Source: Iphione sp. A-MEVVRFRX5 (lineage: Eukaryota). Taken from it: a stretch of 64,000 nt of DNA. Location of the stretch: contig OZ320318.1 in assembly GCA_976226885.1 (NCBI GenBank), positions 83,142,001-83,206,000 of the forward strand, written 5' to 3'. The first letter of the stretch is position 1. Every line of letters begins with the position of its first letter. The translations under genes were made by a program, and so were the position numbers. Below, one piece after another: positions 38,269 to 61,431 of this stretch. Under the pieces are notes generated by a model that was given only the letters and a program-made list of their open reading frames with translations, had not been told where the DNA came from and ran no database searches.

Positions 38269-38342
38269 AGTAGTATAGTGGGGTAAGGGGTCGCGAAAAG
38301 TTTCTCCTGATTGGCTGAGCCGTGACCTCTGTGACGTCACAG
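38269..38342 (+). repeat. Left terminal inverted repeat (74 bp)
   Basis: Exact reverse complement of 61432-61505. Contains an E2F-like TTTTCGCG, a CCAAT box and the palindrome CTGTGACGTCACAG (CRE core). Confidence 0.97.
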
Positions 38343-38371
38343 TCTGTGATTCGTCGTTTTCAAAGTTATGC

Positions 38372-38600
38372 AATCAATCTGTTCTGTGATTGGTTGCTTT
38401 CAAAGTATTGCAACACCGATCAGCCTGTTCTGTGATTGGTTGGTTTCAAAGTATTGCAACACCTGTCAGCCTGTTCGATGATTGGATGCTTACGAAGTAT
38501 TGCAACACCTGTCAGCTTGTTCTGTGATTGGCTGCTTACGAAGTATTGCAACACCTGTCAGCCTGCTTTTGTCATTGCTTGCCTATGAAGTAATGCAATA
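38372..38600. repeat. Subterminal 46-bp tandem array (~5 copies), enhancer-like
   Basis: GTATTGCAACA at 38405, 38451, 38497 and 38543, plus a degenerate copy at ~38590. Most units also carry TGATTGG (CCAAT box). Confidence 0.85.
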
Positions 38601-38796
38601 CATATCTCAGTGACGAAGTAAAGCAAATTCGTGGAGCAATATGTGTTTCATTTTTTGTTACAATGTGGTGCAATTCGTATTTCAGTTAGCATGTTGATAC
38701 GAAGTGTTGCAATACGTGTATCAGCCAGTTTGAACGAAATCAGGAAAATGTTTTCTAATTTGTGTATGGCTTGTATGTTTGAAAAAATGAAACAGA

Positions 38797-38869
38797 ACCT
38801 AGATAGCTCAATTGGGAGAGCGTCAGACTGAAGTTCTGAAGGTTCACGGTTCGAACCCGTGTCTAGGTA
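38797..38869 (+). tRNA. tRNA-Phe(GAA) gene inside the Polinton
   Basis: 73-nt cloverleaf with all stems paired: ACCTAGA/TCTAGGT, GCTC/GAGC, TCAGA/TCTGA (loop CT-GAA-GT), CACGG/CCGTG (loop TTCGAAC). A and B boxes intact; T4 run 7 nt downstream. Confidence 0.9.
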
Positions 38870-39037
38870 TATTCATTTTATTGGAAGTAAATTTGTTTCT
38901 AGCTATTGTGTAATATCGTTTCTCCTATGTCCAGACTATAAAAGTCATACAATTGTGTCAGATTTAGCACATTCGTTTCACAGAGGTTGGAGAGAAAAGC
39001 AGTTTTTTCTTCATCTTCACGATTTTATTCATTTACA

Positions 39038-39580
39038 ATGTCTGAGGAGAGAGATTATTCCGCTGTCGATGGATCTATTCAAGCTGATTCATGTATTGAG
39101 TCCGATTCCGGGTGTATTGAGACTGATTCCGGGTGTATTGAGACTGATTCCGGGTTTGTACCGAGCGGTAACAGACCTTTTGCTTGTTCGTTGGAAAGGA
39201 ACACAGCAACCATTCGACCATTGTATGTTAATCCGAAATCACGTTGCAATGTACCAGCATTTCCCAAGTTCAAAGATAAAGAGGTTCGCCGTCAGACGTT
39301 CGCAGGATGGAGCGGTTTGATTGACATAGAAGAACTGGTTCAGAGTGGTTTCTTCTATATAGGAGTAGGAACTGTACAATGCTTTCATTGCGGACTTTGT
39401 CTTCATTCCTGGGAGTCTTCGGATACTCCACACATTGAACATTTGAAGTTTGCACCAGAATGTGCTTTTAATTCTTCATTATCTAAACCGACGCGTCAAA
39501 GAGAATTCTTTGTTACTGTGCTACGTGATATAATCAAAGTTGCTAAGAGTGTTAAAGAACTAAAGGATTCTTTTGTTTGA
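39038..39580 (+). CDS. BIR-domain inhibitor of apoptosis-like protein (single BIR, no RING), ~180 aa
   Basis: RRQTFAGW...LVQSGFFYIGVGTVQCFHCGLCLHSWESSDTPHIEHLKFAPEC carries the BIR CxxC-H-C zinc ligands. ATG at 39038 preferred over the upstream TTG. Confidence 0.9.
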   Translation: MSEERDYSAVDGSIQADSCIESDSGCIETDSGCIETDSGFVPSGNRPFACSLERNTATIRPLYVNPKSRCNVPAFPKFKDKEVRRQTFAGWSGLIDIEELVQSGFFYIGVGTVQCFHCGLCLHSWESSDTPHIEHLKFAPECAFNSSLSKPTRQREFFVTVLRDIIKVAKSVKELKDSFV

Positions 39581-39805
39581 GATGCAAAAAAAAAAAATGT
39601 TTATGTCAAACGAAATATTTTTCAATGTTTATGATGAAATAAAATGCAATAATTGAAAAAAGTGTTGTCTTTTTTATTTAAAATATATCTTGTTTAATTG
39701 AAAAAGAATGATCTTAATAGTTTGAATAATGACGAATCTTAACTAAAATATATTGAATAATGACGAATCTTAACTAATATTGTTGTTCAGTTCTCAAATA
39801 GATAA

Positions 39806-39947
39806 AAGATGGCGCCTTCTTTGAATGAATCATTAACGAAAAAAGTTAGATGGCGCACCTATTTCTGAACCAATGTTAACCAGCTTTTAAGATAATAGAT
39901 GGCGCCTATTTCTGTCTCTTTGTTAACCTGTATTAATAGAGGGCGCC
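39806..39947 (+). promoter_or_regulatory. Cluster of four YY1-like AGATGGCG motifs upstream of ORF 40134
   Basis: AAGATGGCGCC (39806), AGATGGCGC (39848), AGATGGCGCC (39897), AGAGGGCGCC (39938). A likely 5'-UTR intron follows at 40005-40111 (gtaagt...ttttttcag). Confidence 0.55.
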
Positions 39948-40133
39948 TTGAATTTGTCAGCTGTCGTTCCATCACTAGTGACTTATCATCGGATCGAGAA
40001 AGTGGTAAGTTGTATTCATAATTCATTTCTCTTTTTTTTTTTTTTTTTTTTTTGCAATTGTGAATATTTTTTTAAAGTTTAATTTTAATAGTTTTTTGTC
40101 CCTTTTTTCAGTTTTTCCATCTATTGGTTCATC

Positions 40134-40802
40134 ATGGAGCTTCTTCAAACTCTTCGAGTTGGAAAGAACTATAAGCTTACTGCTTACGATCCCTTCATTG
40201 AAAGCGAAGAAAGGACTGAACCAACTATCTTTCTTTCACACATAGAAAATCGTTTTAAGCGGATTCCCTTTACATTGGATGACTTTTTACGAGAAGAGGG
40301 GAGAAATGATTTAGTTGTTGTAATTTCACCAGACCAATACATTGAGCAAGAACTCAAGGAACTTGATGACAGACCGCTTGAAATTATGAGTCTTTTTCTG
40401 TATAGCATGAGAAAAATGCGCAAGGCTATGTTTCATCAAAAGTTGAGCTTATTCCATCTTTCTGCTCTCTCTGTGGTGGGACAGATGTGGATGGTTGAAA
40501 ATTCAGAAGAATCCGATTCAGAAAGCGAAGATGCTGCATTTGATTGGAGTGTAATTCATCCATGGCATACTGAGTTTACGAAAATGTCAAAAGTAATTCA
40601 GAATCTAAAAAAACTCCCCATTCCAAAACATCTTATATCAAAAATTAAAGAAGATGTGTGTGTGAATGAATCTGGTCGATTTGTTTATGGAATCATCGAC
40701 CGAAGTGTTCATATGGAGTGGAATATTTACGTAGAGCAGGCTATGATGGATCTCTTTTCATCTCCAGATCCTAAAAAAGTTCTTCGGGAAATAAAAAGGT
40801 GA
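40134..40802 (+). CDS. Hypothetical protein with BC-box- and Cul5-box-like motifs; may splice (intron 40799-40916) to end at 40971
   Basis: 222-aa ORF with SLFHLSALSV and LKKLPIPKHL. Donor ag|gtgatt and acceptor ttacag| are phase-compatible and would add DDGTYDLFAIESNGKNH*. Confidence 0.7.
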   Translation: MELLQTLRVGKNYKLTAYDPFIESEERTEPTIFLSHIENRFKRIPFTLDDFLREEGRNDLVVVISPDQYIEQELKELDDRPLEIMSLFLYSMRKMRKAMFHQKLSLFHLSALSVVGQMWMVENSEESDSESEDAAFDWSVIHPWHTEFTKMSKVIQNLKKLPIPKHLISKIKEDVCVNESGRFVYGIIDRSVHMEWNIYVEQAMMDLFSSPDPKKVLREIKR

Positions 40803-41598
40803 TTCTACTTTGAATTTATTTTACAATGTAATTGAAAAAAAATTAAACATTTATAATCTTTCATCTGTGTTTGAAAAGTGTTAATATGTTTTAACACCAA
40901 ATCAATTCTATTACAGGGATGATGGAACCTATGATTTATTCGCCATCGAATCTAACGGAAAAAATCACTGAGGGAAAAAATTGCTTCATCACCACACTCA
41001 TGTTTCAGGTAATTTTCATTCCCAGTTCGAAATTTAAAATTCTTTTTTTTCTCAAATTTTTTCCATCAAATTTTTTTTCTGTATCTTTTTTCGCTAGTTT
41101 AAAAAATGATATTCATGAAGACAAATTCTTTTTTTTTCAGAATGAATGATGGAAATGGTGCTTCCTGATTTCTGGTGCTCTCATTCATCACCTGATTTTC
41201 TCAATCTCTACTGATGGACGTTTAACGTTTTAAGAAAGAATATATATTTCATATAATTTCATATAATTTTTTCAATAAAAGCGAAGAATTATAAGAAAAC
41301 AGTCTTTTTTTTTATTTGTAAAATTCTAAACGTCACTGTTCTCAATAAAGCTATCAAATCAGTTCAAGAGTAATCTCTGATTATTAAAATCAGGTTGACA
41401 GGTCAGGTTCAATCACGAAAAGGTGATTCACCCACCTATTTTCTTTCCAATGAAAATGGAGTCAGGTGTAATTCGTTTAAGGACCTGTTTCACTGAATAG
41501 TGAAATCATGCCAGATATCGGGTTAGAGTCCCCCTTAAAAGTTTTCGATTGGTCTCTTTTTCCCGCGTAAAGATAGTGAAAAGCTCTACCCCTAGTAC

Positions 41599-41607
41599 TA
41601 TATAAAG
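41599..41607 (+). promoter_or_regulatory. TATA box of the PC4-like gene
   Basis: TATATAAAG about 90 bp upstream of ATG 41694. Confidence 0.6.
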
Positions 41608-41693
41608 TTGCTTCTGACTTTCCGTCATCATTGTTCAGTCCAGCTTTCCCATCACAGCATCAGTTTTCCAGCACTGATTTCACGAATTTCAAC

Positions 41694-42766
41694 ATGGAGA
41701 AGATTTCACCACAAATCTATATCGAGGTTGCTGAACCTTTCTTGAATCTTGAACGAAGAAAGGAAACTGGCATCAGACAATTGGAAATTCATCTTGGTCT
41801 CTTTCATATTGCGAAAGAGAAGCAGTCTCAAATTTTCAAGGGGAAAGTTATCAAGGTGGATAATTCGCAAAAGCATTGGAGCATTGAACGGAAACAATTT
41901 CATAACAAATACTATATCTGTTTCACCAGGCTTGATGATGACGGCGAACGTGTAAAGTGAGTAAGAAATTGTTGTGTCTGTTTTTTCCACAGGTCAGGAA
42001 TGAGTGCGCTAGTAAATTTCCTCTTTCATAGTGAATTCAATATTATTTTTTAAATTTGTTGGTTTTGTTTTTTAGTTATGATTCATTCAACCTGCTGGTC
42101 AGTGAGTTCGAGTCCATCTGTGAAATTCTCCATAAGAGGAAAGTGAATACCACCCCAGATTCATCCTCATCACCCACGAAGAGAAAGTCTGTGGCGACTT
42201 CACCGATGAAGAGAAGAAAGACATTACAAAACCTCTCTGCCAAACGGTTTTCATATCAATTGGTAACTTGTCTTACCGGAACAGTGCGTAATGTGTGTGA
42301 TGTGTATCTTGAAGAAGAGACTTGTATAAAAGAGGCTCAAGCTAGTGTTCAGGACGGTGAAATTCCAGAATACATTTCACTTCCATCTGTTGAACTAACA
42401 TTGAATCAGTTTGTACAAAGATGTTATGCTTATCTTTTATTGCTGGAATATAAAAAAAGAATAAAAGAGTTTTGTGAAGGTTGTCTGTTTAACGAAGACG
42501 CCCAAAATCACATTGAAGGTTGTATCTTTTCTGGAAGAGAGCCTGATGCAGACCAGTTGCATGCTGCACACATTAGAATTAGTGCACTGAGACTCATGGA
42601 AGCGTCTAAGTATATGTTAGATTACTACCATTGCTCTGATCCTAAGATCGACCTTGAAATAGATACATTGCTCTGTGAAACTGTTTTGAATGAAGCAAAA
42701 GATCATGAGAAGGATTACATTGTTGTGGAACATGAAAAGGAATATGAAGAATTATCAAGGCTTTAG
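41694..42766 (+). CDS. Spliced ~317-aa protein (exons 41694-41956, 42076-42766) with a PC4/Whirly-like ssDNA-binding-type segment and a C-terminal CxxC..H..C motif
   Basis: Donor aa|gtgagt and acceptor ttttttag|t are both phase 2 and join two ORFs in frame. WSIERKQFHNKYYICFTRLDDDGERVNYDSFNLLVSEFESI resembles the PC4 core; CEGCLFNEDAQNHIEGC lies downstream. Confidence 0.65.
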
Positions 42767-43875
42767 AGACGAAAAAACGTTTATTCAAAAGTCTTCTGTG
42801 TGCGCTGATTAGAAGAAAGTTTTCCTATGTCTAGAATCATTACACGTCAAAGTGTGCACGTTCAATGACAAGAAAAAGTTTAACATGCGTCTTGCTTTCA
42901 TGTTCAATGAGTAAGATCATTAGTCATCTATCTATCTATCTAAATGAACTAGAGTAGTTTTTCTTCCTTATTTCTTGAATCATATGTGCTGATTTGTTCT
43001 TACTTGTTTGTTTCCTTTTACAAATAATCATCTGTATTTTAACAGTACATACTGATTGTTTAGACTTGCTTGAAAAAAAATCTTAGTTTTGATTTCTCTT
43101 CAATAAAAAAACCTATGAAAAAAAATGTTATTTCTTTTTTTCTGATAAGTCTACAAATGTCCTAAGAAACAAAAAAATGTTGAGAACACAATGAAATAAC
43201 AAAAGAAAAAAAATTTCAAAAAGAAAAAAATGTTTCAAACTGAAAAAACTACCTCTATCTGAAACTAATGTGGAAAAGAGCGAGCTGTTGACCAGTCTTC
43301 TATTCAGCATCGTTGTCGACATCGTCACTTGAGCACAAACATCATTTGTTCTGGAAAAAAAAATATTTTCTAAGTCAACTGTCCTTTTATTATTTCAGTC
43401 AATTTTTTTTTGGAATAAGGTTGTGTAACTACTTATTCAAGAATTTTTAATAACTGAGTAAATCAAATTATATTTAGTTTCAAAGTAGATAAATTAACGT
43501 CTGTTTTTTTCTTAACATGTTAGTTGAAAGCTGAAAAAAATTATCACCTGAATTATCTTTCGCTTCTTGTTTTTTTTCGTGCTTGAAAAAATAAAGAACA
43601 TCTTCAAGGGCCTGGCTCTCCATCCTTCGTTACACACGTCAGGGATAGCTGCAAATCTGGCTGTCTCTCCATCCTTCGTTACACACGTCAGGGATAGCTG
43701 CAAATAAATCTGGTCCGCAGAGTTCTCACTCAAACTGGACACCCAAAAAAATTTTTCCTATTAGTAATTCTTCTTTCTTAATAAGAGATTAGTAATTCTT
43801 TTTTTTTCCAAAAAATTTGTTATATATTTCTTTCTTAACAAGAGTCTGAATTTTTATCTCCAAAAAAAAAATCAA

Positions 43876-46800
43876 TCAGTTAATGAAAAAAACAATTACC
43901 TGCAATTTGCGGAATCGTTTAGGTGTCGGTGGTGGCGCCATTGCTGTGTCAGCTGAAGCATCTGATGAGTGACTTGTCTTCGACATGCTTGCTAAGCGTC
44001 TTGAGCGTCTTGGAGTAGAAGGGGGCGTGGCACGACTTGAAATGCTCACATCTGAATCACTGTCAAACCCCGTTGCTCGTTGGGACTTGACAGACAAGCG
44101 TCTTGAGCGTCTTGGAGTAGAAGGGGGTGTGGTTCGTTGTGAAATGCTCACATCTGAATCACTGTCAAACCCCGTTGCTCGTTGGGACTTGACAGACAAG
44201 CGTCTTGAGCGTCTTGGAGTAGAAGGGGGTGTGGTTCGTTGTGAAATGCTCACATCTGAATCACTGTCAAACCCCGTTGCTCGTTGGGTCTTGACAGACA
44301 AGCGGCTTGAGCGTCTTGGAGTAGAAGGGGGTGTGGTTCGTTGTGAAATGTTCACATCTGAATCAGTCTCAAACCCCGTTGCATGTTGGGTCTTGTCAGA
44401 CAAGCGGCTTGAGCGTCTTGGAGTAGAAGGGGGTGTGGTTCGTTGTGAAATGTTCACATCTGGATCAGACTCAATCCCTGTTTGCCGTATTTCTGAAGAG
44501 CATGCTAACTGACTCATGTCTTTGTTACTAGTTTTTTCTGTTGTTTGTTTTGAAGTTTTCAAGTACTTTTCTACCACTGTCGAGTCAAGTCTGACAACTG
44601 GGTTTATTGTTTTGACGAATTTTTCCATTAATTTTCCATCTAGAAGTTTCAGAGGAAGTTTGACAATGATTTCTGGTTGCTTGCTGAGTGATGCAAAAGG
44701 GATGTTGCTTGAAGATGGAACCACTTCTGTTGACGAGAGATTGGGAGTAGGTTTGAAACACACACTTCTTGGAATTGCTTCAACTGTGTTTGAACCTGTG
44801 ACAAATGGTTTCTTTTGTGTCAGGGAAGCCTCATCTCTCGGTGGGGTGGTAGTGGAGGTGGTAGATGAAACTGTTTCCACATCTGTTGTTGATTCAATGC
44901 TACTAGAACTGGAACAAACACTTCCTGGAATTGGAACATTTGAGTTAGTGCTTGTGGAAAACGGTTTTCTAGTTGTCAGACAAGATGGGGTGGCTGAAGA
45001 AGCTNNNNNNNNNNNNNNNNNNNNNNNNNNNNNNNNNNNNNNNNNNNNNNNNNNNNNNNNNNNNNNNNNNNNNNNNNNNNNNNNNNNNNNNNNNNNNNNN
45101 NNNNNNNNNNNNNNNNNNNNNNNNNNNNNNNNCTCTGTCGGGGTGGTGGTGGTGGAGGTGGTGATAGGTGTTGAAGAGTCATCTTTTGTTGGGGTGATGG
45201 GGATAGTTGAGTCACGTGCAAAAGGATTAGTAGGCGACAGTGTTGAAGAAGAAGAAGACACATCTCTCGTTGGGCTGCTCGATAAACCAGCTACTGCATA
45301 TGCTGATGAGACATGAGCAAAAGGATTAGTAGGCGACAGCGTTGAAGAAGTCACATCTCTCGTCGGGGTAGTCGTTAAACCCACTAATGCATATGTTGAT
45401 GAGTCATGGCTAAAAGGATTAGTAGGTGACAGCATTGAAGAAACCACACCTCTCGTTGGGCTGACCGATAAAACAGCTACTGCATATGCTGACGAGTCAT
45501 GAACAAAAGGATTAGTAGGCGACAGCGTTGAAGAATTCACATCTATCGACGGACTGCTTGTTAAAACTGCTTCTCCATCTGCTGACGAGTCATGGGTTGG
45601 AGAGGAAACAGTGCAGAGACTAGCTGCTACTGCATCTGCTGTCTGTTCATTGCCAGATGGGTTGGGACAAACATCATTGTTAATGAATGAAGCAAAAGGG
45701 TTATTGCTGGAGAACACTGGCTCATTCTGTTGTCTTTCTGGTTGAACAGACTTCAGGCTGCTGATGTTTACAGGTGAAAATGATCTTTCCAATGCTGATG
45801 AATGTGTAGGTATATGAGTGAGTGAACATTCTGTTGGAGAATGACTGGGAGACGTGTTCTGCATGTTCTTTGGGAGAACATCCTTCAGACTTCTACTGGA
45901 AAAACATGATAGGTGAGAAGAAGAAGAGTGTGATGCTGTTTGAGATTGTTGTGGAGGAGTAGGTGATCGTGGTGATGGTGGTGGAGGTGGTGGACTCGTT
46001 CGCTCTGGTGATGGAGGTGGTGTTCGAGGTGATGGAGGGGGTGGTGGTGGACTCGTTCGCTCTGGTGGTGGTGGTGAACGGAGTGATAGTGGTGGATTCG
46101 TTCGCTCTGCTGGTGCTGGTGAAGAACGTGCTGGACCAGGTGAACGCTGTGGTGGTGGGATAGATTGCTCTGCTGGTGCTGGTGAAGAACGTGCTGGACC
46201 AGGTGAACGCTGCGGGAAAGGTGAACGTGGTGGTGGACTCGTTCGCTCTGGTGGAGGTGGTGATCGTGGTGATGGAGGGGGAGGTGGTGGACTCGTTCGC
46301 TCTGGTGAAGAACGTGCTGGTCCAGGTGAACGCTGTGGGAAAGGTGATCGTGGTGGTGGTGAAGAACGTGCTGGAGCAGGTGAACGCTGTGGGAAAGGTG
46401 ATCGTGGTGGTGGTGAAGAACGTGCTGGACCAGGTGAACGCTGTGGGAAAGGTGATCGTGGTGGTGGTGAAGAACGTGCTGGAGCAGGTGAACGCTGTGG
46501 GAAAGGTGATCGTGGTGGTGGTGAACGCTGTGGGAAAGGTGATCGTGGTGGCGGTGAAGAACGTGCTGGGTCAGGTGAACTTGGTGGTGTTGGTGAATGA
46601 AGGTGTACTGGATATGGAGATGTGGGGACTGGAAGCGTTGAACGTGGTCGTGCTGTCGATGATGATGATGAGGTGCCTGGAAGTGGTGAACGTGGACGAG
46701 GTGTCAATGATGATGGGGATCCTGGAAGTGTTGAACTTGGACGTGGAGACAATGATGAGGGTCCTAGAAGCGATGGTCGTGAACGTGGTGTCAATGATGA

Positions 46801-47272
46801 TGAGGGTCCTGGAAGCGATGATCGTGCTCGTGCTGACAATGATGATGAATGGGGTGGAAGAGGAGGTGGTGGAAAATGTGCTCGTGCTGGCAAGTTTGAT
46901 GTATGGGCTGGAAGAGGTGGAAGTGATGTTGAACGCGGGCGTGGTGTCAATGCTGAGTGGCCTGGAAGAGGAGGAGGTGGAAGAGATGCTGAACGTGGTG
47001 CTGGAGTTGGTCCCATACCTGATGTGGAAGGTTCCCCGTGCTGTGTTTTAGATAGAAACAGTTTTTTCAGAACATCAATTCCTGATAGACAACCACGTGT
47101 ATAATCTGGAGCTTGCCCAATGCTTCGATTTGTTGGTTTACTCTTCTGAGAAAATGTAGTATCTTGCCATAAATTGGGTGTTTCAGGGGGTTCCTCATCA
47201 TCCTCACTGTTTACTTCACCAAGCACTGCATCAGTTTGTCTGTTGTTAACTCTTGAAGGAACAGATCTATTT
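43876..47272 (-). CDS. Large Pro/Ser/Thr-rich repetitive coding exon (~1120 aa, spans a 128-N gap); probable cytoplasmic tail of the 47591-48216 membrane protein
   Basis: Stop-free frame with 54-bp, 93-bp and 102-bp coding repeats. Acceptor caaag|a at 47272 (phase 2); donor cag|gtaatt after 43900. Confidence 0.75.
45005..45132. other. Assembly gap (128 N)
   Basis: Run of N inside the repetitive large exon. Confidence 1.
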
Positions 47273-47590
47273 CTTTGAAAAATAGAATAGGAAAAAACAA
47301 AAATATATATATGCCTATTTCCAATTTTATTCTTTTTTAAAAAAAAAACCCACAGAAAATTACTAACACTCCCCTTGAATTTAGTTTTAGCAACTTTTTA
47401 CTTTTAGGGTTAGCTTCATTCAAGAAAAAAAAAATTCAGAGCCCACCTTGTCAACCTAGGCTGACAAGGATGCAACAAAAGTAGAATTTTTTTTTACCAT
47501 TTGTTTTCTTAATTAACGATTGAAAGAATTTTAGAGGGATTTTTTTTTTTCTCTAAAAAAAATCAAGGGAGTAAAAATGAACACACTAAC

Positions 47591-48216
47591 CTACGGTTCC
47601 CAAGCCATTCGAAAGCTCGTTCATAGAATGACTGCTGTGGATGTAAACTTCGTCTAGTTAAACACGGTGGTTGCACCTTATGTTTGATCCAAGCTACCAC
47701 TCCAATTGCTAATATACCAAGAATTCCCACTCCTAAGATGACTCCGACGATCACTAGATCTGTACTTTCCGTGATTTTCTTATCTTGAACCAACACCATC
47801 ATACTAGTTAACTGTTTATCAGTTTCGGAAACTGTAACATGATTCCGCTCATCAGAACTTGACCGACCTTCATTTTCTCTGTTTGATGTGTCAAGTGTCG
47901 AAGTTATCCAAGCCTCGTCGTCATTCTTTGTGGAAGATTCACTTTCGAACGGGAGTCCTTTCAGTTGAAGCAAGTTTGGGAAGATTTTATGAATGTGCGC
48001 AATAAATTCATGGCGGACACCGGTGACTTGGGGATCGACCAACTCCAGAATCTTAACACTCGGGTGTGGATAGTTTATGGTGAAGAAAAAAGCTATCTCG
48101 GTTTTGACACAATACACGTGTCCATTAAGACATGAACATTGCCTGCATAATTCCTTTGCGTCGCTTTTTCCAATAAAGAAGAACAATAAAATGATCCAAA
48201 AGATTGACAGCGTCAT
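47591..48216 (-). CDS. Type I membrane protein A: signal peptide, LRRNT-like Cys cap, short LRR-like segment, TM helix (exon 1)
   Basis: MTLSIFWIILLFFFIGKSDA; CRQCSCLNGHVYC; VKILEL...FPNLLQL; TM LVIVGVILGVGILGILAIGVVAWI; donor ag|gttagt, phase 2. Confidence 0.75.
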
Positions 48217-48700
48217 TCTTCTTTCACTTTCATCACTCCAAACACTCGGAACCGCATCTTCGTAAAAACAAGTCTGCACAAAATAAAATCTTCAAAGAGA
48301 AAAGATCTTTTATCATTCTAAATAAATATCATTTATTTCCTCTTTTTTTATCATTAGAAAAAAGAGATTTTTTTTTTTGTAACTAAATACGAAACTAAAG
48401 AACCGGAAGAGATAGAGGAAAAACAATATGGTGGTTTGTAGCTCGTCAAATCTTCTAATCTATGTTATTTTGTTGATTTTTTCCGATAAGCGAGAAAAGA
48501 GATAACACCTATCCCTGGAAAACGTTATCCCATTTATTAAAAATCGTTATCGCTTCATATGAAAGATAGTCAATGTGATTTAGGGTCAACCTTTTATCAG
48601 TGTGTCCTTTGAAACTTATCTGATTCACTCAATTATACGAAGATATAAGAGTCGTTCAGCTTTTTGTTTGTCAGTACATGAAAGCGAACGCACTGTCATC

Positions 48701-49618
48701 ATGCAGGTAAAACCAGATATATTGCTTATTGTTTTTATCTTTTCTACAAGTCAGAGCTGTCCTATAGAATGTTGGCCTTGTGCTGGAGTCATTATGAGTT
48801 GTCGTGGAAGAATTGATCCATTTAAATTTCATTTTATTAAGAATTATGCTGTTAAGGTTTTGGACTGGAAATCATGTGAAATTGAAAGAATTCATTTCAA
48901 AACATTTCTTTCTTTCCCCAATCTAATGGAATTAGATATTCGTTTTTCCTTGAAAAAATTTAACTGTAGCACATTATCTCTAATTCCAAGTCATATTTCC
49001 TATTTTTCGGATTGTTCGGCTTCAGAATCAACCTCTTCATCCACCACGGATTTTAATCGAACCTACTCATCTTATTCCACTCCACCTGTTGTTAATTCTT
49101 CAACAATTCTTAGTTTGTCCACCCCTTCACACTCTGTGATAAACACAACTATTTCTTCTCCAATAATCAGCACTCTGTTAATGTCTTCTTCTTTTTTCTC
49201 CAGCGTCCTTGTTCCAAATTCCTCTTTGTCGTCAACAACAAATACCACGCCCTCATTTCTTTTCACGACAACTTTTGTTCAAAATTCAACACATACTATT
49301 CTTTCGAATGGTATTTCTGTTAGAACCCTTAAAATTGCATTAGGATGTGTATCTGGTTTCACCATTCTGTGCTTCGGTGTTCTGTTGTGGAAAATTATTG
49401 TAAAGAAAACAAGTCAACGACGAAGCAAGGTATGTTGGTTTATTTTTGTTTTACAAACAATCATATTTTTTTTCTTGCATTTCTTTGTCTTCAGAATCAG
49501 TTCACTAATTATTTTTTTTTTCTCATTCCAGATAAACTTTTCGTCAGATGCAATGGAGGTAAAAAAAATCCAGAAAAAGTGTGAATTCTTTATTAATCAA
49601 ATGAGCACATGTTCATAA
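48701..49618 (+). CDS. Type I membrane glycoprotein B: signal peptide, LRRNT-like cap, LRR-like repeat, mucin-like S/T stalk, TM (probable intron 49430-49531)
   Basis: ILLIVFIFSTSQS; CPIECWPCAGVIMSC; VKVLDW...FPNLMELDI; several N-x-S/T sites; TM IALGCVSGFTILCFGVLLW; aag|gtatgt...cattccag| in frame. Confidence 0.78.
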   Translation: MQVKPDILLIVFIFSTSQSCPIECWPCAGVIMSCRGRIDPFKFHFIKNYAVKVLDWKSCEIERIHFKTFLSFPNLMELDIRFSLKKFNCSTLSLIPSHISYFSDCSASESTSSSTTDFNRTYSSYSTPPVVNSSTILSLSTPSHSVINTTISSPIISTLLMSSSFFSSVLVPNSSLSSTTNTTPSFLFTTTFVQNSTHTILSNGISVRTLKIALGCVSGFTILCFGVLLWKIIVKKTSQRRSKVCWFIFVLQTIIFFFLHFFVFRISSLIIFFFSFQINFSSDAMEVKKIQKKCEFFINQMSTCS

Positions 49619-49644
49619 TCATCTCGCAGTTTAAAGAAAAGCTT

Positions 49645-50127
49645 TCAATTTTTGAGACATCTTAACATTTCACTATTCACTACTCTAAAATCATTCTTTT
49701 CTAAATCTACGCTATCATAATGGTTAATATATTTTTTCAAAGACCATCCTTTAAGTTTGAAGAAAATATATTCCATACAAAAATGACCACACACTGGTTG
49801 TTTTCCTTGAATTTTCGTGTTTGAAAACAGGAATTTTGAAGCATTTACTATAAGGAAATCTTCAATTCTCTGACTGTAGGATTGGGGTGGTTTTCCTAAT
49901 GGATCGAAAAATTCAGCAGGTTCGTTATTTTCAGGGAGGAAAATGACTACCCAGTGTTTTCCTATCCCAGTAACCTGATCTGTATTCACAACATAGATAG
50001 CTGGTTTTTGCGAAACAGGAAAAGATGGTAGGTTCTGATATGAGTCCACAGCTTTGAAAATGCTTTCGTGAGCAAAACATTTCTTGAAATCAGTACTAGT
50101 TAATGGTTTAGGTGGTGAGTTGAACAT
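49645..50127 (-). CDS. Adenain-like cysteine maturation protease (PRO)
   Basis: VVNTD...GKHWV (His), EFFDPLG (Asp), IQ...VCGHFC (Gln, Cys) catalytic pattern. Confidence 0.93.
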   Translation of the reverse strand: MFNSPPKPLTSTDFKKCFAHESIFKAVDSYQNLPSFPVSQKPAIYVVNTDQVTGIGKHWVVIFLPENNEPAEFFDPLGKPPQSYSQRIEDFLIVNASKFLFSNTKIQGKQPVCGHFCMEYIFFKLKGWSLKKYINHYDSVDLEKNDFRVVNSEMLRCLKN

Positions 50128-51466
50128 TTCTTGCTAAATCGATACTGACAAGAGCAGGGAAAGTTGCATAGGCTATTATATTGATGGAATTGGGTAATGC
50201 TTTAGAAAACTTGATAGTTAGTCTGGTGTTTCCACGCCGAAGGAAGGAAGCAAGTTCTCGATCTCTTGCCTTATTCAAATCAAAGACAAATAGAGTGTAA
50301 CCTGACTTGAAGTCATCTTCAGAGATATCAGGTAGTTGTCCCACATGCCAGTCAGGAAAAGCATCAAACAGAGCAAGATATGATGTAGCACAGAGTCCGT
50401 CTGTGAAGTTCGGTTGAAAAGCTCGTCCTGGTCGCGATTCACCGTTAACCTCGAAACTGATGTAGTTCACATCGAAGGGTTGAAAATTGAAGGGGTTCTT
50501 CTGAGCATCTCCAGCATAGGCTTTGGATTCCACCATTCCCACGATCAGTCTGTCTGGGATTCGATCTTGGAAAATGTTTTCACCAGAAAATTCGTAACTA
50601 GCATTTGACACGGTGAAAGAACGAAGTTCACTTCGAATGAAGGGGTAGAGTACTGGAGTCTTTTCTAGCTGATTACGATGCTTTAGAATGAGTCCTTCGT
50701 GCACTTTTGTGAATGTAACCAGTAAGGTCGGTTTACTTATTTTCAAATGATAAATCTTTGAAGTGCGTGTACTGGGAGTTGTGACAGCTTGAACATTAGA
50801 AGATGCAGGTGGTGTATATGCTGTATACATTAAACGGAAGTTGTCTGAGGATTGATGGAATTTTATATTGATGGGTACCCCGTTGATGAGTGGTCTAGTT
50901 TGATTACATATATCACTGAATACTTTAGTGATCAGTTGGGTGGTTTTTCCATTTTCTGTTCTTCGTTTTCTCCTCACAAGCCCGAGATTTCTGTCAGTTG
51001 TTGCATCATCCATGTCAGATTCATTATCTTTGGAGAAACCTGCCACGCGTAGCCAACCGATCTCGTCACTCAGTCCTGATTCAGCAAGAGTGTCTAGCAT
51101 GGCTTTGAATGGGAAATTTCCTCCAACACTGCTATTGATTACTGTTTGTTGAAGGGAAAATTCCATTTGACTGAACATTGTGGAAGATATCAAATTGATA
51201 AATCCGACTTTATCGACTGAAGTGATGGGTTTCTTCTCATCAGTTAAAATCTGTAAATTCATTCTCAATCTGGTTTTATCAAGCATGATATAATCCAATG
51301 AATCATTGGGGATATTAAATTCGATAACTCCGTCCAAGGAAACATCACTCACAGGAGAATATTCCTTTATGTACTGTTGGGTTAGAGCAGTTTGCGTGGG
51401 AGGAACATCAAAAAGATCTAGGTTCATTCCATAACCTTCTTCTGAATCTCTAAGAACGTATGCCAT
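50108..51466 (-). CDS. Major capsid protein (double jelly roll, hexon-like)
   Basis: 452 aa; Polinton MCP N-terminal LDLFDVPPTQT...EYSP...IEFNIP...YI, plus IPDRLIVGMV and NPFNFQPFD motifs. Confidence 0.92.
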   Translation of the reverse strand: MAYVLRDSEEGYGMNLDLFDVPPTQTALTQQYIKEYSPVSDVSLDGVIEFNIPNDSLDYIMLDKTRLRMNLQILTDEKKPITSVDKVGFINLISSTMFSQMEFSLQQTVINSSVGGNFPFKAMLDTLAESGLSDEIGWLRVAGFSKDNESDMDDATTDRNLGLVRRKRRTENGKTTQLITKVFSDICNQTRPLINGVPINIKFHQSSDNFRLMYTAYTPPASSNVQAVTTPSTRTSKIYHLKISKPTLLVTFTKVHEGLILKHRNQLEKTPVLYPFIRSELRSFTVSNASYEFSGENIFQDRIPDRLIVGMVESKAYAGDAQKNPFNFQPFDVNYISFEVNGESRPGRAFQPNFTDGLCATSYLALFDAFPDWHVGQLPDISEDDFKSGYTLFVFDLNKARDRELASFLRRGNTRLTIKFSKALPNSINIIAYATFPALVSIDLARNVQLTT

Positions 51467-51752
51467 AACGTCTTGTTGTTTTCTTCTTCTTCTTATTTTT
51501 AGATTTTCTCTGGGATGTGGTTTTCCTCCTTCTCTTGTTGCTTGCTGACTTTCGACTGGTTTGTCTCTTCCGCTTTCGGCAATTTATAGGGGGATTTTTT
51601 TTCAGGCTTGCTTTTGCACGTTCCACAGCTTGTTCAGATGGAGTGACTAATTGAACTGGTGTCGTGGTTCCTCTTCCTATGAAGTGATTCCTTTTGCGAG
51701 AAACATGATCAAATGTGTTCATTTTGGGAATGAATGGAACAAATTCAGTCAT
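51450..51752 (-). CDS. Small basic core/genome-condensing protein
   Basis: 100 aa; FIGRG (adenain xxGxG-like site), VQLVTPSEQAVERAKASLK, K/R-rich C-terminal half; lies between the two capsid genes. Confidence 0.75.
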   Translation of the reverse strand: MTEFVPFIPKMNTFDHVSRKRNHFIGRGTTTPVQLVTPSEQAVERAKASLKKNPPINCRKRKRQTSRKSASNKRRRKTTSQRKSKNKKKKKTTRRYGIRS

Positions 51753-52117
51753 TTTTTCTGAACAGGTCTAATTTCAAAAAGAAGACGCTTGAAAATTGGT
51801 GCTTGATTTCCTTCCAGTGTTTTCCCAAAGACTCGAAAGCGTTCTAAACTCTTTCGTGATACGGGAAAGAACCACAGATGATCGAATTCACCCGTTGTCT
51901 TTCGTGTAATTCGCACTGTCGGAGCACTTTGTCCAGAAATGAAATTATCATTCACCAAGTCACAATTCACAATAATGTCACGTCCTCTGGGTACACCACT
52001 ACAGTATAGGTTCACCAAAGCACACTCCCACTCCCCTTCCAATTCGATGGGACGCGGTAGGGTGGTGATGAAGTCGTTTTCTGACTGAGTTTGAGAACGG
52101 ATAGCTTGCAGATACAT
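51749..52117 (-). CDS. Minor capsid protein (penton, single jelly roll), unusually short (~122 aa)
   Basis: NDFITTLPRPIELEGEWECAL, IIVNCDLV...GQSAPTVRI and WFFPVS motifs typical of Polinton pentons. Confidence 0.82.
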   Translation of the reverse strand: MYLQAIRSQTQSENDFITTLPRPIELEGEWECALVNLYCSGVPRGRDIIVNCDLVNDNFISGQSAPTVRITRKTTGEFDHLWFFPVSRKSLERFRVFGKTLEGNQAPIFKRLLFEIRPVQKK

Positions 52118-52156
52118 GAATGCACTGACTGAAGAACATTCCAACAACACAGTGTC

Positions 52157-53269
52157 TTATATACCTTCCTGTATGCGTTTCAGTTCCTCCTTACTGACCC
52201 AGGAATCATACTTACTGGGCCAACCGAGCCAGTGAACAATGAATCCGTCCTTTCCATTAAGCTTTTTTTTTCTGATAACTTTTTCTACTTTATATTGAGT
52301 ATCTTGGTTCACTTCCACCGGGATCATTTCTTCTGTATAGAATTTTCCATCTATTTCTTCATTGTCCCAAGACTTAAGTGAATATTGGGGAATACCTTGT
52401 TGCATTTTCCTGTCTGTAACCACAAACAATTCATGAGTCCAGTTTTCGTCATAAGCCCTTGTGAAGGTTTGTTTGAATTTAGATAACCTCACAACATCAC
52501 CCTTTTCAAACTTGAAAGGAAAAGTTTTGGGGATTTTCTTGTCTTTGGTAGTATCAAATTGAACGTTCCACAATTTGACTTTTTCACTCTCACTGGCTTG
52601 AAGGGGAGTCATTTTGATAGAACGATGAAAAGAATTATTGTATGAATCTGTGAAATGAGAAAGATTTTCCAACCACTTGTGACTTTGTAAGAAGTACATC
52701 TCTTTGGTGATCTTGGATTTTATTGTTTTTATGAAACGTTCAGCATAATTTGCTTTCACTTCGTTCCTCGTTACCACGTGCTTTATATTTTCTTTGTTCA
52801 GGTACTTCCTCACCCATTGATTATTGAATTCACTTCCTCCGTCAGTTCGTAGCACTTTACAAACTTGCTCTTGAAAGACAGATTTCAGTGCGCTCAATGT
52901 TTCTTTTCCCGAGAGAGTTTTGAGGGGACGAGTCCAAGCATACCTGGGAAAAACATCTATGACCACTAAGAAATAACTCATTCCATCGTTTTCTTTAGAC
53001 CATGTGACCATATTAGCAGTATCTGCATCGAATTGAAAGAATTTATCCGAAACCACCACCCTTGGTCGTTTCACAGAACGAGAAGGTTTTGAAGGGGCAA
53101 ATAACGTATATGTCTCCTGTGCTTTCAACCATTCTCGTATTTTCTTGAGAGAGATATTCTTGCCATCTTTCTTAGCTCTCGTATAAAGTGCTGTCACACC
53201 AGAAAAAGCTTCGGGTTCATTGGGGTCATAATAAATCTTGTTTAAGTACTCTTCCATCCATCGTGCCAT
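52157..53269 (-). CDS. Retroviral-type DDE integrase with C-terminal chromodomain
   Basis: FQFDADT (D), LRTDGGSEF (D), YAERFIKTIK (E); chromodomain YKVEKVI...FIVHWLGWPSKYDSWV. Consistent with the 6-bp TSD. Confidence 0.96.
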   Translation of the reverse strand: MARWMEEYLNKIYYDPNEPEAFSGVTALYTRAKKDGKNISLKKIREWLKAQETYTLFAPSKPSRSVKRPRVVVSDKFFQFDADTANMVTWSKENDGMSYFLVVIDVFPRYAWTRPLKTLSGKETLSALKSVFQEQVCKVLRTDGGSEFNNQWVRKYLNKENIKHVVTRNEVKANYAERFIKTIKSKITKEMYFLQSHKWLENLSHFTDSYNNSFHRSIKMTPLQASESEKVKLWNVQFDTTKDKKIPKTFPFKFEKGDVVRLSKFKQTFTRAYDENWTHELFVVTDRKMQQGIPQYSLKSWDNEEIDGKFYTEEMIPVEVNQDTQYKVEKVIRKKKLNGKDGFIVHWLGWPSKYDSWVSKEELKRIQEGI

Positions 53270-53628
53270 GCTAACTGCCTCTTCTTTTTTCTTAAGGGTT
53301 TACCTGGTGGTGGAGGAACGATTGCTAAAGGAGTTGACTGTTTCCTCTGTTTACTTTGTTTTTTCATTGACGAGGAGACTGGTTGTGTGCTCGATTGTGG
53401 TGGAGATGATGGCGGCGGTGACGGCGGCGGCGACGGCGGTGGTGGGGGCTGAGGCGACGATGGGCGTGACGGTGGAAATGGCATCAAAGGAAGCCTAGAT
53501 ACCCAACCACCACCACCCTGCAGTTCCTTTTGTGGGTGAGTATCCGAATGTTCGTCTTCACTCCTCTTTGTGGGTTGAGAAAATAAAGCTTGGTAACGCT
53601 CAAAGGGTATACACACCACTTTTCTCAT
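53242..53628 (-). CDS. Small Polinton hypothetical protein, Pro-rich
   Basis: 128-aa ORF overlapping both neighbours. MRKVVCIPFERY start and terminal Trp resemble the small ORFs usually found between ATPase and integrase. Confidence 0.7.
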   Translation of the reverse strand: MRKVVCIPFERYQALFSQPTKRSEDEHSDTHPQKELQGGGGWVSRLPLMPFPPSRPSSPQPPPPPSPPPSPPPSSPPQSSTQPVSSSMKKQSKQRKQSTPLAIVPPPPGKPLRKKKRQLAWHDGWKST

Positions 53629-53960
53629 TCTCTCATCAGTTTAAATAGATCTGGTTTGATTGAAAGAAGAATGCGATATAGCTGAGTACGTTGATGTGCA
53701 ATCAGTTTAGCTTTCTTTTTCAATGAGGAAGTGGGATCACTAAGATTCTTGATGAGTCTTATATTCTTGTCAACGACTCTTCTGACTGGTTGAGGGATAG
53801 GGAGATTGTTTAAATTAAAAGCAATCTCGCTCAAGACTAATGCCTGGTCTGGGGTTACAGTGTACAAGAGTGCTTCTGCTTGGTTCTTGTTTGGAGTGTT
53901 CAGAAGAAGAGTGAGAAAGTCTTTCTGGTTGTTGATCCGTGGACTCTTCATTTGTACCAA
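53625..53960 (-). CDS. Small Polinton hypothetical protein
   Basis: 111-aa ORF (FLTLLL...AEALL...DQALVLSEIAFN) directly downstream of the ATPase, with overlapping start/stop. Confidence 0.75.
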   Translation of the reverse strand: MVQMKSPRINNQKDFLTLLLNTPNKNQAEALLYTVTPDQALVLSEIAFNLNNLPIPQPVRRVVDKNIRLIKNLSDPTSSLKKKAKLIAHQRTQLYRILLSIKPDLFKLMRE

Positions 53961-54568
53961 ACTAGAACCTCGTCAGGGAAAATGTGAGAGGTTAACTTGA
54001 CTTCAGTGTGATTGCGTGGATGGAGGTCGACCACTAAATAACCGAATGGTTCGGAAGTGACGTCTTTATATGCTTCCTTTATGCTCGGCATTCCGACTTG
54101 TTGTGCCAGACGTGTTATCTGTTGAATATCCCTTGGATTTTTAAACAGCACTAAGTATTGAGAATTGAGAGCAATTGTCCTGGCACATTTTCCTTGACAA
54201 TATAAATTCTGATTCATATAAATAATAGTAATATCCCTATGGTGAGATCCTCTAGTAAACAAATGCTGAATTTCCGAATCGTTCACTACAATATCCATCA
54301 AGTCGTCTAGTATCAAAAGAATTCTTCCACCTTCTTTCAAATCCTCCAAATTGATTCCCTCGCGGAATTCAACATCTTTAACATCTTGAAATCCAGTTTG
54401 CCAAGCACCATAACAATATACGATTTTTTTGAAAGGTTTTTCAAACAGTTGTTTTCTATATCGGATGAGTTTCTTCACGAAATATGTCTTACCAGAAGAG
54501 GTGGCTCCAGAAATGGATATGGTGCTTGGTGTAGCGAAGCTGAACGATGGTATGTCTAGTTCAGTCAT
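53948..54568 (-). CDS. A32/FtsK-like DNA packaging ATPase
   Basis: Walker A GATSSGKT, Walker B LLILDD, FTRGSHHRDITIIYMNQNLY, FKNPRD. TATAAAA about 40 bp upstream of ATG 54568. Confidence 0.95.
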   Translation of the reverse strand: MTELDIPSFSFATPSTISISGATSSGKTYFVKKLIRYRKQLFEKPFKKIVYCYGAWQTGFQDVKDVEFREGINLEDLKEGGRILLILDDLMDIVVNDSEIQHLFTRGSHHRDITIIYMNQNLYCQGKCARTIALNSQYLVLFKNPRDIQQITRLAQQVGMPSIKEAYKDVTSEPFGYLVVDLHPRNHTEVKLTSHIFPDEVLVWYK

Positions 54569-54661
54569 TGTGAGAACACAATATGTCAAGACAAAATACA
54601 AACTTATGGTTTTATATTGCAGTGCAATGAAATAATAACTGAAACAAATTAGTTTTTTTTT

Positions 54662-59470: not shown

Positions 59471-59572
59471 CTAGAAAAAATGTAATAAATCGTTATAAAA
59501 AAACAAATTCATTGAAAAAGCGAAATTGACAAAAAAAATCTTTTTTTAAAACCACAAATTGTTAGCTCTTAC

Positions 59573-59626
59573 CTTTTTTTCTTCACTAGTTCCTGAACCA
59601 GCAGATGATGACACAGTGGGAGAGTT
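59573..59626 (-). CDS. pPolB putative exon 3
   Basis: tttacacag|NSPTVSSSAGSGTSEEKK|gtaaga, phase 0-0. Confidence 0.6.
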
Positions 59627-59760
59627 CTGTGTAAACAGAGACAAGGGCGCAGGTAGGATTTACTTTTGGAATAATGTCGTAAAAAAAACAAGAATCTATT
59701 CATATATTTAAAAAAAGTAAAAAAACATGGAAGCGAAACATAGATTTATTTCTCTCTTAC

Positions 59761-59856
59761 CACAGGTGAAGATGAAGAAGGCCGAGCAGATGTGGAAGGA
59801 CTATTAGGAAGGAACTCGCTGCTAGAGTCAACAAAAAATTCATCAAGCACTGCCCT
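59761..59856 (-). CDS. pPolB putative exon 2
   Basis: ttttcttttcag|RAVLDEFFVDSSSEFLPNSPSTSARPSSSSPV|gtaaga, phase 0-0. Confidence 0.68.
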
Positions 59857-59947
59857 CTGAAAAGAAAAGGATAAAACAAAAGGATTGTCTTCAATGTGAA
59901 ATAAATGAAAGATTAAAAAAACTATAAAAAACAAAATTAAACTTTAC

Positions 59948-60109
59948 CTCTTCACTTGTTAAATGCTGAATACGCTCCAATTTTCTCTTCTTTTCAAGAA
60001 CGAGTGGATTATCTTCAATGTTGTTGTCATTCGCCCATTGCATGAGCTCATGAACGTTTGTGAAATCTCTGAGTCCATTCCTGATGAAATCGATGTTAGC
60101 TTGTGCCAT
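59948..60109 (-). CDS. pPolB putative exon 1
   Basis: ATG...MAQANIDFIRNG...LTSEE|gtaaag, 54 codons, phase 0. Confidence 0.68.
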
Positions 60110-60148
60110 TCTTGAATACTGAAGGGATTCGGTTAAAATCAGCCTCCC

Positions 60149-60156
60149 TATTTATA
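60149..60156 (-). promoter_or_regulatory. TATA box for the pPolB transcript
   Basis: TATAAATA on the minus strand 40 bp upstream of ATG 60109. Confidence 0.65.
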
Positions 60157-61046
60157 GAGGATGGGATATCAGTTATCAGATATGAAATGTGATTTCACAA
60201 CCAAGTGAAAGGACTGGAAAATAGATTCGAATACTTTTTTCCCAATATCTAATAAATGTATCCTAATTGAAAGTATTGTTTTTTCATTCATTCCCGTCAT
60301 AATAGAAAACTATGATGAAATCATTTTTATGGAATATCAAAACACATACGCCATCTATATTTAAGTTTCAGCAAAAGCGAAAATATTTTTCCTGCATATG
60401 ACACTAGGTGGAGTTGAAGGGACATGATTGCAACAAGATTCGAGTCTCCATCTATCCGCTAGATGGCTACATAAAAATCATTGCTCTAGTTCCATTGCTT
60501 ACCGGTAGGATTGAAATAGACGCTAACAAACAACGATTCGTCTTTTTTTAGCAAAATATAAATGATTGACAATGTTTTCCATCTCTACATACAGTTAAAA
60601 AGTTGAAATACTCCATAATTAAATGAAAAAATGAATAGGGAATTGAATACAAAACCGAAACAAGCATATTAATATGGAATACAGTTATTTTTTCAAACAT
60701 CTCCTAAAAAACACCATTTACAGATACATTTAAATTAAATATAGTCTTATCTGAAATGAAATCCTGGTATGTTTGTTTTGGGACAGTCTTCCCTTGATCA
60801 TTGGAGGACTGGCTCATTTTCGGGTCAGCACCTCCCTGAATCATTGGAGGACTACCTGAATAGTTTTAGGAAGGATTCCTCGTGCATAGTTGCCCCAAGG
60901 TCCGCTCGTGTCCCGCCTGGCACGAGCGGCAATTTTTGAACAGGGACGCTCTAATTAGCGTCCCGATAATCAAATAGAAAAAAAAATCCCCATAGTCCAC
61001 GTTCAATAATTGAACCACCATACGTTACTCCAATGTAAAAAAGGTC

Positions 61047-61118
61047 TTCCCAGACTCGGATTTGAACCGAGGACATACGGATATTCCGTCCGACGCTCTC
61101 CCACTGAGCTACCTGGGA
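61047..61118 (-). tRNA. tRNA-Phe(GAA)-like Pol III gene with a non-canonical anticodon loop
   Basis: 72 nt: TCCCAGG/TCTGGGA, GCTC/GAGC, TCGGA/TCCGT (one mismatch, loop CG-GAA-TA), CTCGG/CCGAG (loop TTCAAAT). A and B boxes intact; T6 terminator 4 nt downstream. Confidence 0.78.
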
Positions 61119-61418: not shown

Positions 61419-61431
61419 AGAGGCAGGAAAC

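Follow-up and report, generated by a model that had tools for sequence, protein, structure and literature searches.

The question raised by a stretch of 64,000 nucleotides from the genome of Iphione sp. A-MEVVRFRX5 (assembly GCA_976226885.1, contig OZ320318.1, positions 83,142,001 to 83,206,000 of the forward strand; the whole stretch is called the window below) is whether two open reading frames (ORFs) on its minus strand, a short one for a membrane protein and a long one rich in Pro and Ser, both lying inside a virus-like Maverick/Polinton element, are exons of one gene and, if so, what its product would do. From a comparison of the genomic copies, found by searching the assembly (1.18 Gb, 89 contigs), we conclude that the two very probably form one spliced gene, here named gene A. 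For its predicted product of 1,335 aa we propose, with less than even confidence and on the grounds of sequence and structure models, the function of a single-pass membrane-anchored chromatin tether, most probably located at the nuclear envelope.

A first-pass annotation of the window had fused the two ORFs through a donor at 47591 and an acceptor at 47272, both in phase 2. Coordinates and phases were confirmed; when the window's ORFs are joined in the two remaining phases, the frame stays open for only 20 and 1 codons. The same annotation had read the long exon up to a stop at 43876; this end is now replaced by a conserved phase-0 donor at 43899 (cag^gtaatt, with ^ marking the junction) and an acceptor at 43734, giving a product that ends in ...RKLQ^FE-stop and extends about 1,160 aa past the membrane. 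The model of gene A then consists of the following parts.

47591..48216, minus strand: gene A exon 1, 626 nt, ATG at 48216, last base 47591, donor tag^gttagt; it encodes a signal-peptide-like N-terminus, a Cys-capped domain resembling a minimal leucine-rich repeat (LRR) protein, a Ser/Thr/Glu stalk, a single transmembrane (TM) helix and a basic juxtamembrane segment
47273..47590, minus strand: predicted phase-2 intron 1, 318 nt, acceptor ttttcaaag^aaatag, first base of exon 2 at 47272
43900..47272, minus strand: gene A exon 2, 3,373 nt or 1,124 codons, a low-complexity Pro/Ser/Thr tail that includes a run of 128 N
43726..43734, minus strand: coding part of predicted exon 3, Phe-Glu-stop, after an intron at 43899-43735, acceptor cag^ttt(g/a)agtg

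Support for the fusion comes from the other copies in the genome. Exon 1 has at least 154 matches, in families from 100% down to about 32% identity, and a set of 40 loci was compared, made up of the window, 20 loci from the 46 matches of one search and 20 from the search with 154 matches, minus L040, which has no exon-1 match. An automatic rule found a matching phase-2 donor and acceptor in 33 of the 40 loci, and divergent copies anchored by hand had phase 2 at both sites in 12 of 12, counts that are not independent trials since the copies share ancestry. Among the loci missed by the rule, L059, L050 and L060 are broken or truncated, and in L057 the acceptor was placed by hand. In the hand-anchored copies the join is open for 214-1,132 codons, as against 1-194 in the other phases. 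The 13 close copies carry exon 2 in 13 different lengths (3,325-3,778 nt), all of them 1 mod 3, together with introns of 318-352 nt that fall in all three frames. Intron interiors can be aligned only among these close copies and the splice sites are kept beyond them; between families the synonymous sites are saturated (proportion of synonymous differences, pS, 0.81-0.87), the corresponding nonsynonymous proportion (pN) being 0.33 in exon 1 and 0.20-0.36 in the block around the PxVxL motif described below. It is this persistence of the splice sites, despite unalignable intron interiors and saturated synonymous sites, that makes the phase test forceful. Tandem repeats have a period divisible by 3 in 13 of 13 rows inside exon 2, as against 1 of 9 among the rows that no listed ORF covers. 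In the window family exon 2 has its first Met at codon 86, after two conserved motifs, and the motif PxLWxDTxF stands upstream of the first Met in the window family, in L044 and in L051.

The 3' part of the gene was followed in the same way. The donor at 43899 has GT in 12 of the 13 close copies and GC in L030, and it is also present in the families with 72%, 55% and 51% identity; the acceptor at 43734 is likewise conserved across families and gives Phe-Glu-stop in most of these three. In L027 (about 6400-6450) the exon-3 acceptor has been replaced by what appears to be an inverted piece of the NPF-repeat region. Further acceptor- and donor-like sites are seen past the predicted stop (43100-43734, minus strand), partly kept in L033, and one short segment is open in both copies; because no common reading is kept across families, the exon-like segments downstream of 43726 are probably untranslated. 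An optional microexon of 9 nt (47455-47447 in our recount), put forward in the first-pass annotation, occurs only in 13 near-identical copies and was dropped because it is absent from all 27 more distant loci. The caution that the N run (45005-45132) might conceal a frameshift or a stop could be lifted for the frameshift, since exon 2 with its 3,373 nt is 1 mod 3 like its sisters; an in-frame stop could still lie beneath the N in the window copy. Twelve sister copies are free of N, 9 of which are open throughout exon 2, and 3 have one stop each (codons 434, 483, 1004), none at the place of the N run.

In 94 of 94 capsid loci among those listed (94 scored of 1,458 candidates), exon 1 of gene A is found no more than 6 kb away, by which count the gene is fixed in this Maverick lineage and not sporadic cargo. 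Identity in its exon 1 drops to about 30% where the capsid still has 81-84%, a fast evolution that would be expected of a host-facing protein.

What the long tail might do has to be judged from its motifs. It is composed of Pro, Ser and Thr to 48% and of order-promoting residues to 18% (window), and across copies it is about 400 to 1,250 aa long. The order reported at first, with Pro/Ser-Pro repeats of 54 bp followed by NPF repeats, a Thr-rich stretch and RRSxRLS-type repeats, is correct (NPF five times at 45702-45220, PRRSxRL five times at 44421-43993), and the view of the tail as a scaffold of short linear motifs is in agreement with what follows. The tails are mostly unalignable; therefore the motifs that are kept are informative.

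47152..47172, minus strand: LWQDTTF, core of PxLWxDTxF, following an acidic tract and upstream of codon 86, where exon 2 has its first Met
45220..45702, minus strand: NPF in five copies, of which four belong to a 93-bp repeat
44587..44601, minus strand: PVVRL, an HP1-type PxVxL motif, inside the conserved block NPx[VI]xLD...V..Y
43993..44421, minus strand: five TPPSTPRRSxRL repeats in a 102-bp unit, the first two reading PRRSSRL, each overlapping an S/T-P-x-R pattern
43906..43923, minus strand: C-terminal basic cluster PKRFRK, resembling a nuclear localization signal (NLS), on weak evidence

Two motifs are kept almost throughout, PxLWxDTxF, to which we return below, and NPx[VI]x[LI], the latter found at one homologous place in 39 of the 40 loci, in 36 of them as PxVxL proper. 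In 15 aligned rows of this block the P and the L are invariant and the V is nearly so, the x positions being free. PxVxL is the pentapeptide bound by the chromoshadow domain of HP1, as described in the accessible text of PMC7465937, and the host genome has an HP1 gene, its chromoshadow domain being split over two exons. The core RRSxRL of the distal repeats is present in 5 copies in the window and in 2-8 copies in intact relatives of its clade, where three families have it in different repeat units. PRRSSRL, as two of the five window repeats read, is identical to the core of the segment PPRRSSRLT of tardigrade Dsup, which straddles the acidic patch of the nucleosome according to a cryo-EM structure (PMC12487698, in the part available). 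When one natural repeat was modelled by ESMFold2 with H2A and H2B of the same genome, the score was 0.66 versus 0.13 for the best control (partner predicted local distance difference test, pLDDT, 54-55); between runs at least 92% of the contacts agreed, and they connect peptide residues 14-20 (PRRSSRL) with H2A 60-61 and 64-65 and with H2B 45-48, 103-104 and 107. The mark used for such complexes is attained by 51 of 78 solved complexes as against 2 of 108 mismatched pairs, peptides lying outside this calibration, and the pass may come from the program's memory because similar complexes are solved. The idea of a chromatin-binding tail, already voiced in the first-pass annotation, gains much strength from the repeat that matches Dsup exactly, together with the H2A-H2B model and the motif of HP1 type, and we consider chromatin binding, which the tether has in common with a reading in which the tail is released, to be on balance probable.

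Other motifs of the tail may be of a trafficking type. All 14 of 14 aligned rows keep PxLWxDTxF, with LW[EDQ]DTxF as its core. This motif bears a partial likeness to the W-acidic motif bound by kinesin-1, which in SKIP reads TNLEWDDSAI (PMC6214655, as far as its text is accessible); in gene A the acidic residues stand solely after the Trp (LW[EDQ]D). NPF occurs in 5 of 12 representative copies, and NPF or DPF in 7 of 12. It has been amplified in three different repeat units (window, L033 and L044). Because it is missing from the 55% and 51% families, NPF is not part of the core of the predicted protein. Patterns for PPxY, LxCxE, RVxF and Yxx-hydrophobic showed no enrichment in the representative tails. 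A distant clade, with a capsid 81-84% identical, is without RRSxRL, in whose stead one finds KGKGKGKN, [ND]PFxGE and, at the C-terminus, a block SYRGIH...RKR; its PSTS/PCSS repeats and KGKGKG are presumably reminiscent of motifs that bind USP7 or SPOP.

At the other end of the protein stand the head and its membrane anchor.

47947..48150, minus strand: gene A ectodomain, about 68 aa, with four invariant Cys followed by two LRR-like strands and a helix
47686..47757, minus strand: transmembrane helix, the sole strong hydrophobic segment after the leader, with a Kyte-Doolittle peak of 2.88 over 19 residues

The hydrophobicity of exon 2 reaches 1.21 at most in the same scale and window, so no second hydrophobic segment was found there. 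AlphaFold modelled the ectodomain (residues about 23-90) from an alignment of 25 rows with a pLDDT of 88.5. The best structural match found by VIA-align is the ectodomain of GPIb (3rfe_A, Z 5.7, root-mean-square deviation 2.9, 65 residues aligned), the second GPIb-IX (8wfs, Z 5.3, deviation 3.0, 64 aligned), with mostly LRR proteins in the remaining rows; a Z below 8 can reflect merely a common arrangement. Foldseek, run with the head on PDB and BFVD, found nothing at E<=0.001, and the Pfam family LRRNT matched weakly, in 5 of 25 members (best E 0.018). No conserved Cys follows the N-cap in exon 1, so that a C-terminal cap (LRRCT) was not found. The small LRR-capped ectodomain of the first-pass annotation thus finds support, as LRR-like, in the AlphaFold model and the GPIb matches; the head is likely a minimal LRR-like fold and, because it lacks the C-terminal Cys cap, it is not counted as a member of the GPIb-beta/GPIX family. 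In two loci the mini-LRR ectodomain is duplicated in tandem (L053:2555-3019 and L057:2543-2995).

The tether that we propose would work as follows. Gene A, spliced as its splice signals and frame conservation predict, would yield one TM helix with a low-complexity tail, the LRR-like head of about 68 aa facing, according to the model, the lumen of the endoplasmic reticulum or the perinuclear lumen. The PRRSSRL repeat would, as modelled, sit on the acidic patch of H2A-H2B as Dsup and HMGN do, and the near-universal Px[VI]x[LI] motif would bind the HP1 chromoshadow dimer; TPRR sites overlapping the repeats could let mitotic kinases switch the binding off. The disordered linker and the distal basic cluster may bring the protein as far as the inner nuclear membrane, in the manner of Heh2 and Pom121, or it may be captured there when the envelope re-forms. 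Most speculatively, the tether might keep either chromatinised DNA of the element or the heterochromatin that the chromodomain integrase of the element would target at the periphery of the nucleus, in the service of persistence, integration or egress. No envelope protein or fusogen was identified in this Maverick. The complete picture, a lineage of endogenous non-enveloped DNA viruses with its own lamin-B-receptor-like tether that has a luminal mini-LRR head, grips nucleosomes and HP1, fastens viral or host chromatin to the nuclear envelope and obeys a mitotic switch, we regard as possible but rather unlikely to hold.

Several observations weigh against these proposals, some of them against the gene model itself. 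In L048, L049 and L052 two donors overlap 4 nt apart, and only the second, higher-scoring one is in phase 2. The ratio of nonsynonymous to synonymous rates (dN/dS) among close copies is mixed (0.22-4.6 on small counts; 0.65-0.93 versus the decayed 72% copy), and 3 of the 12 sister copies of exon 2 have a stop codon. A signal-peptide LRR head suggests the cell surface, and NPF/DPF, which 7 of 12 representatives have and which was amplified repeatedly, speaks for partners in cytoplasmic trafficking. The PxVxL pattern is short, expected 0.6 times by chance in the window tail, and the N, D and V..Y that flank it are likewise conserved and may mark a different interaction. RRSxRL is limited to the window's clade (capsid 86-100% identical; 3 of 12 representatives, 0 of 9 distant ones), and the classical NLS pattern K[KR]x[KR] is found in 7 of 12 representatives, which is near chance (about 0.5 expected in each).

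The alternatives to be weighed begin with the gene itself. Were the two ORFs unrelated, with splice-like signals arising by chance, one would understand why the acceptor (caaAG) and the donor in the window are not of top consensus, but the conservation of phase, position and frame across 40 loci makes this very improbable. It is also improbable, though less so, that other products dominate and the fused form is minor, intron retention giving a short-tailed membrane protein and a separate or alternative transcript a soluble nuclear tail, comparable to LANA as an episome tether. Unspliced exon 1 does stop 1-28 codons past the donor in 12 of 12 representatives, and exon 2 of some families contains an early Met; the read-through residues, however, are not conserved, the first Met of the window family at codon 86 lies beyond two conserved motifs, and both splice sites stay in one phase across families with unalignable intron interiors.

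If the fused protein is accepted, its tail may serve membranes rather than chromatin, as a trafficking scaffold like vaccinia A36 or adenovirus E3 that recruits kinesin-1 through LWxDTxF and EH-domain or AP-2 proteins through NPF/DPF, the basic repeats being mere phospho-sites; it would move virus-containing vesicles or remove host surface proteins, perhaps together with the neighbouring gene B described below. A36 is indeed a viral membrane protein with WD/WE and NPF motifs in a disordered tail (PMC9333988, as far as its text is accessible), LW[EDQ]DTxF with its invariance in 14 of 14 rows resembles the SKIP motif (PMC6214655), and amplification of NPF in three different repeat units would be in keeping with such a function. 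Yet the Trp of LWxDTxF has neither a preceding acidic residue nor the Leu at -2 seen in SKIP, the 55% and 51% families have no NPF, Yxx-hydrophobic and PPxY are unenriched, and the Dsup-identical repeats and the conserved PxVxL are left unexplained, for which reasons we think this scaffold unlikely. A similarly low probability is given to a sensor of the Notch type, in which gamma-secretase logic would apply: host proteases would cut a surface protein, internalised via NPF/DPF, within the membrane or close to it, and the freed tail would enter the nucleus, bind nucleosomes and HP1 and regulate genes of the element or the host. Such a sensor would explain at once the LRR head with its short S/T/E stalk and the presence of both endocytic and chromatin motifs. 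A conserved cleavage signature was not found, however, and a freed tail of 1,100 aa needs no such long linker, the length of the tail varying from about 400 to 1,250 aa. Cleavage by the element's own protease, also considered in the first-pass annotation, gained nothing from a search for adenain-type sites, of which the window tail has 0 and 5 of the other 11 representatives have 1-2, at no single place common to all, the pattern used being that of adenovirus proteases, from which the specificity of this element's enzyme may differ.

The element that carries gene A is complete and has a second candidate membrane gene next to gene A.

38269..61505, unstranded: complete Maverick/Polinton, 23.2 kb, ends AGTAGT...ACTACT, 74-nt terminal inverted repeats, 6-bp target-site duplication GTGGTT
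48701..49429, plus strand: gene B exon 1, head-to-head with gene A, with a Cys cap, LRR-like strands, a mucin stalk and a TM helix, ending at a donor-like site

Terminal inverted repeats and a target-site duplication are the marks given for Mavericks in the accessible part of PMC8097293, and the element at 38269-61505 shows the (AGT)2...(ACT)2 inverted repeats together with the 6-bp duplication. The integrase (52157-53299, minus strand) is of the retroviral-like type, with a match to Pfam rve over the cut-off (E 3.3e-8) and a C-terminal chromodomain, which fits a heterochromatin theme. The matches of the ATPase to Pox_A32 and of the adenain-like protease to Peptidase_C5 are weak (both E 0.004, under the cut-off). 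The polymerase ORF (54662-59470, minus strand) gave no match to a Pfam polymerase; with its 1,602 codons we take it, from motifs recognised by eye, to be a polymerase B. It has C2H2 zinc fingers at its start and a NADAR domain at its end (Pfam E 5e-11, over the cut-off) and, since there is no Met at the start of its stop-to-stop frame, it may have an upstream exon. The capsid-like ORF, presumably the Maverick capsid to judge by its position, has 14 homologues in a database search, all unnamed or hypothetical, the nearest capsid being 52% identical.

In the left accessory region an ORF with a BIR (inhibitor of apoptosis) domain was found (38942-39580, plus strand, Pfam E 3e-15), and ORFs related to it occupy the corresponding position in other families. 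Another conserved ORF, which belongs to no known family (42035-42766, plus strand), starts with ...FSYDSFNLL after an acceptor-like site and converges on gene A in most families examined. ARAGORN called a tRNA-Phe(GAA) in each subterminal region (38797-38869, plus strand, and 61047-61118, minus strand), inverted and 72% complementary; within this Maverick they may be polymerase III genes or act as boundary elements. Gene B was present by pattern search in 13 of 14 loci examined, and its ectodomain is better conserved (59-91%) than that of gene A. The model of the gene B ectodomain is poor (pLDDT 36.5), and a profile comparison between genes A and B gave a weak result (probability 28%).

Outside this genome, exon 1 found no homologue at E<=0.001 among longer proteins, nor with a 13-row profile among proteins of near length. 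A hidden Markov model search of 1.84 billion representatives returned only 3 weak matches, to the TM or an LRR strand of unrelated-looking proteins, scans of IMG/VR gave nothing for the gene A ectodomain or the capsid, and a PDB sequence search gave 1 match at chance level. These blanks weigh little because the lineage itself is absent from the databases, as the nearest capsid with its 52% identity indicates. In the literature covered, which leaves subscription journals and supplements aside, no paper on such a Maverick gene was found. The persistence of Mavericks, their choice of integration sites and their exit from the nucleus are poorly understood and their accessory genes nearly unstudied; an annotation by intronless ORFs misses large spliced genes of this kind.

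Among known systems, the closest in the fold of the head are GPIb-beta and GPIX, proteins with a C-terminal Cys cap (LRRCT) and a short cytoplasmic tail. Gene A may share with them (3rfe, 8wfs) a Cys cap and a minimal LRR, and the LRR-mucin-TM gene B at its side recalls the GPIb-IX arrangement; it differs in its 17% identity, its giant tail (400-1,250 aa) and the lack of a C-terminal Cys cap. With the extra ORFs described beside the core module of Mavericks and adintoviruses (PMC8097293, PMC8502044, 10.1101/2022.07.12.499685; accessible text), gene A has its position in common. The same sources describe core genes free of introns, intron-bearing cargo and a TM fusogen in nematode Mavericks, and report the Mavericks of vertebrates as intronless; among the membrane-active genes named in these texts, PLA2X, GasderminX, a cupiennin-like gene and MFUS-1, none is, unlike gene A, an LRR-TM protein with a chromatin-type tail. 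Vaccinia A36 (PMC9333988, in part) is likewise a single-pass viral protein with a disordered tail strung with short motifs, including NPF and Trp-acidic-like sites, whereas the tail of gene A, of about 1,160 aa, is spliced on, shows no enrichment of Tyr motifs and carries chromatin-type motifs.

In the repeats the likeness is to HMGN and Dsup, with the same PRRSSRL core as Dsup, modelled on H2A E61/E64 and the alpha1-L1 region of H2B, and with a serine inside the motif that could be phosphorylated. Unlike the soluble HMGN and Dsup, the predicted membrane protein of gene A, encoded by a virus-like element, would end in five tandem copies, in one clade of that element only. The available text of PMC12487698 names Dsup as the sole non-vertebrate protein then known to use the HMGN motif, and yeast Dot5 is a later addition (PMC13347269, in part); if the proposal is true, a multivalent, membrane-anchored and virus-encoded motif would extend this list and offer a new route from membranes to chromatin.

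The nuclear-periphery tethers LBR and PRR14, and Heh2 and Pom121 (PMC4569319, accessible part), resemble gene A in a membrane anchor or a Pro-rich disordered chain, to which come a motif of HP1 type, basic clusters and numerous S/T-P sites, and the TM helix with a long disordered linker of Heh2 and Pom121 is found in gene A as judged by composition alone. The differences are the lack of sequence homology, the type-I topology, the LRR-like luminal head, the NPF motifs and the coding by a mobile element. That a virus should act on the link between HP1 and LBR has a precedent in the agnoprotein of polyomavirus, which interferes with it (PMC12567619, in the part available). By these likenesses, gene A would be akin to known viral accessory membrane scaffolds and to chromatin tethers.

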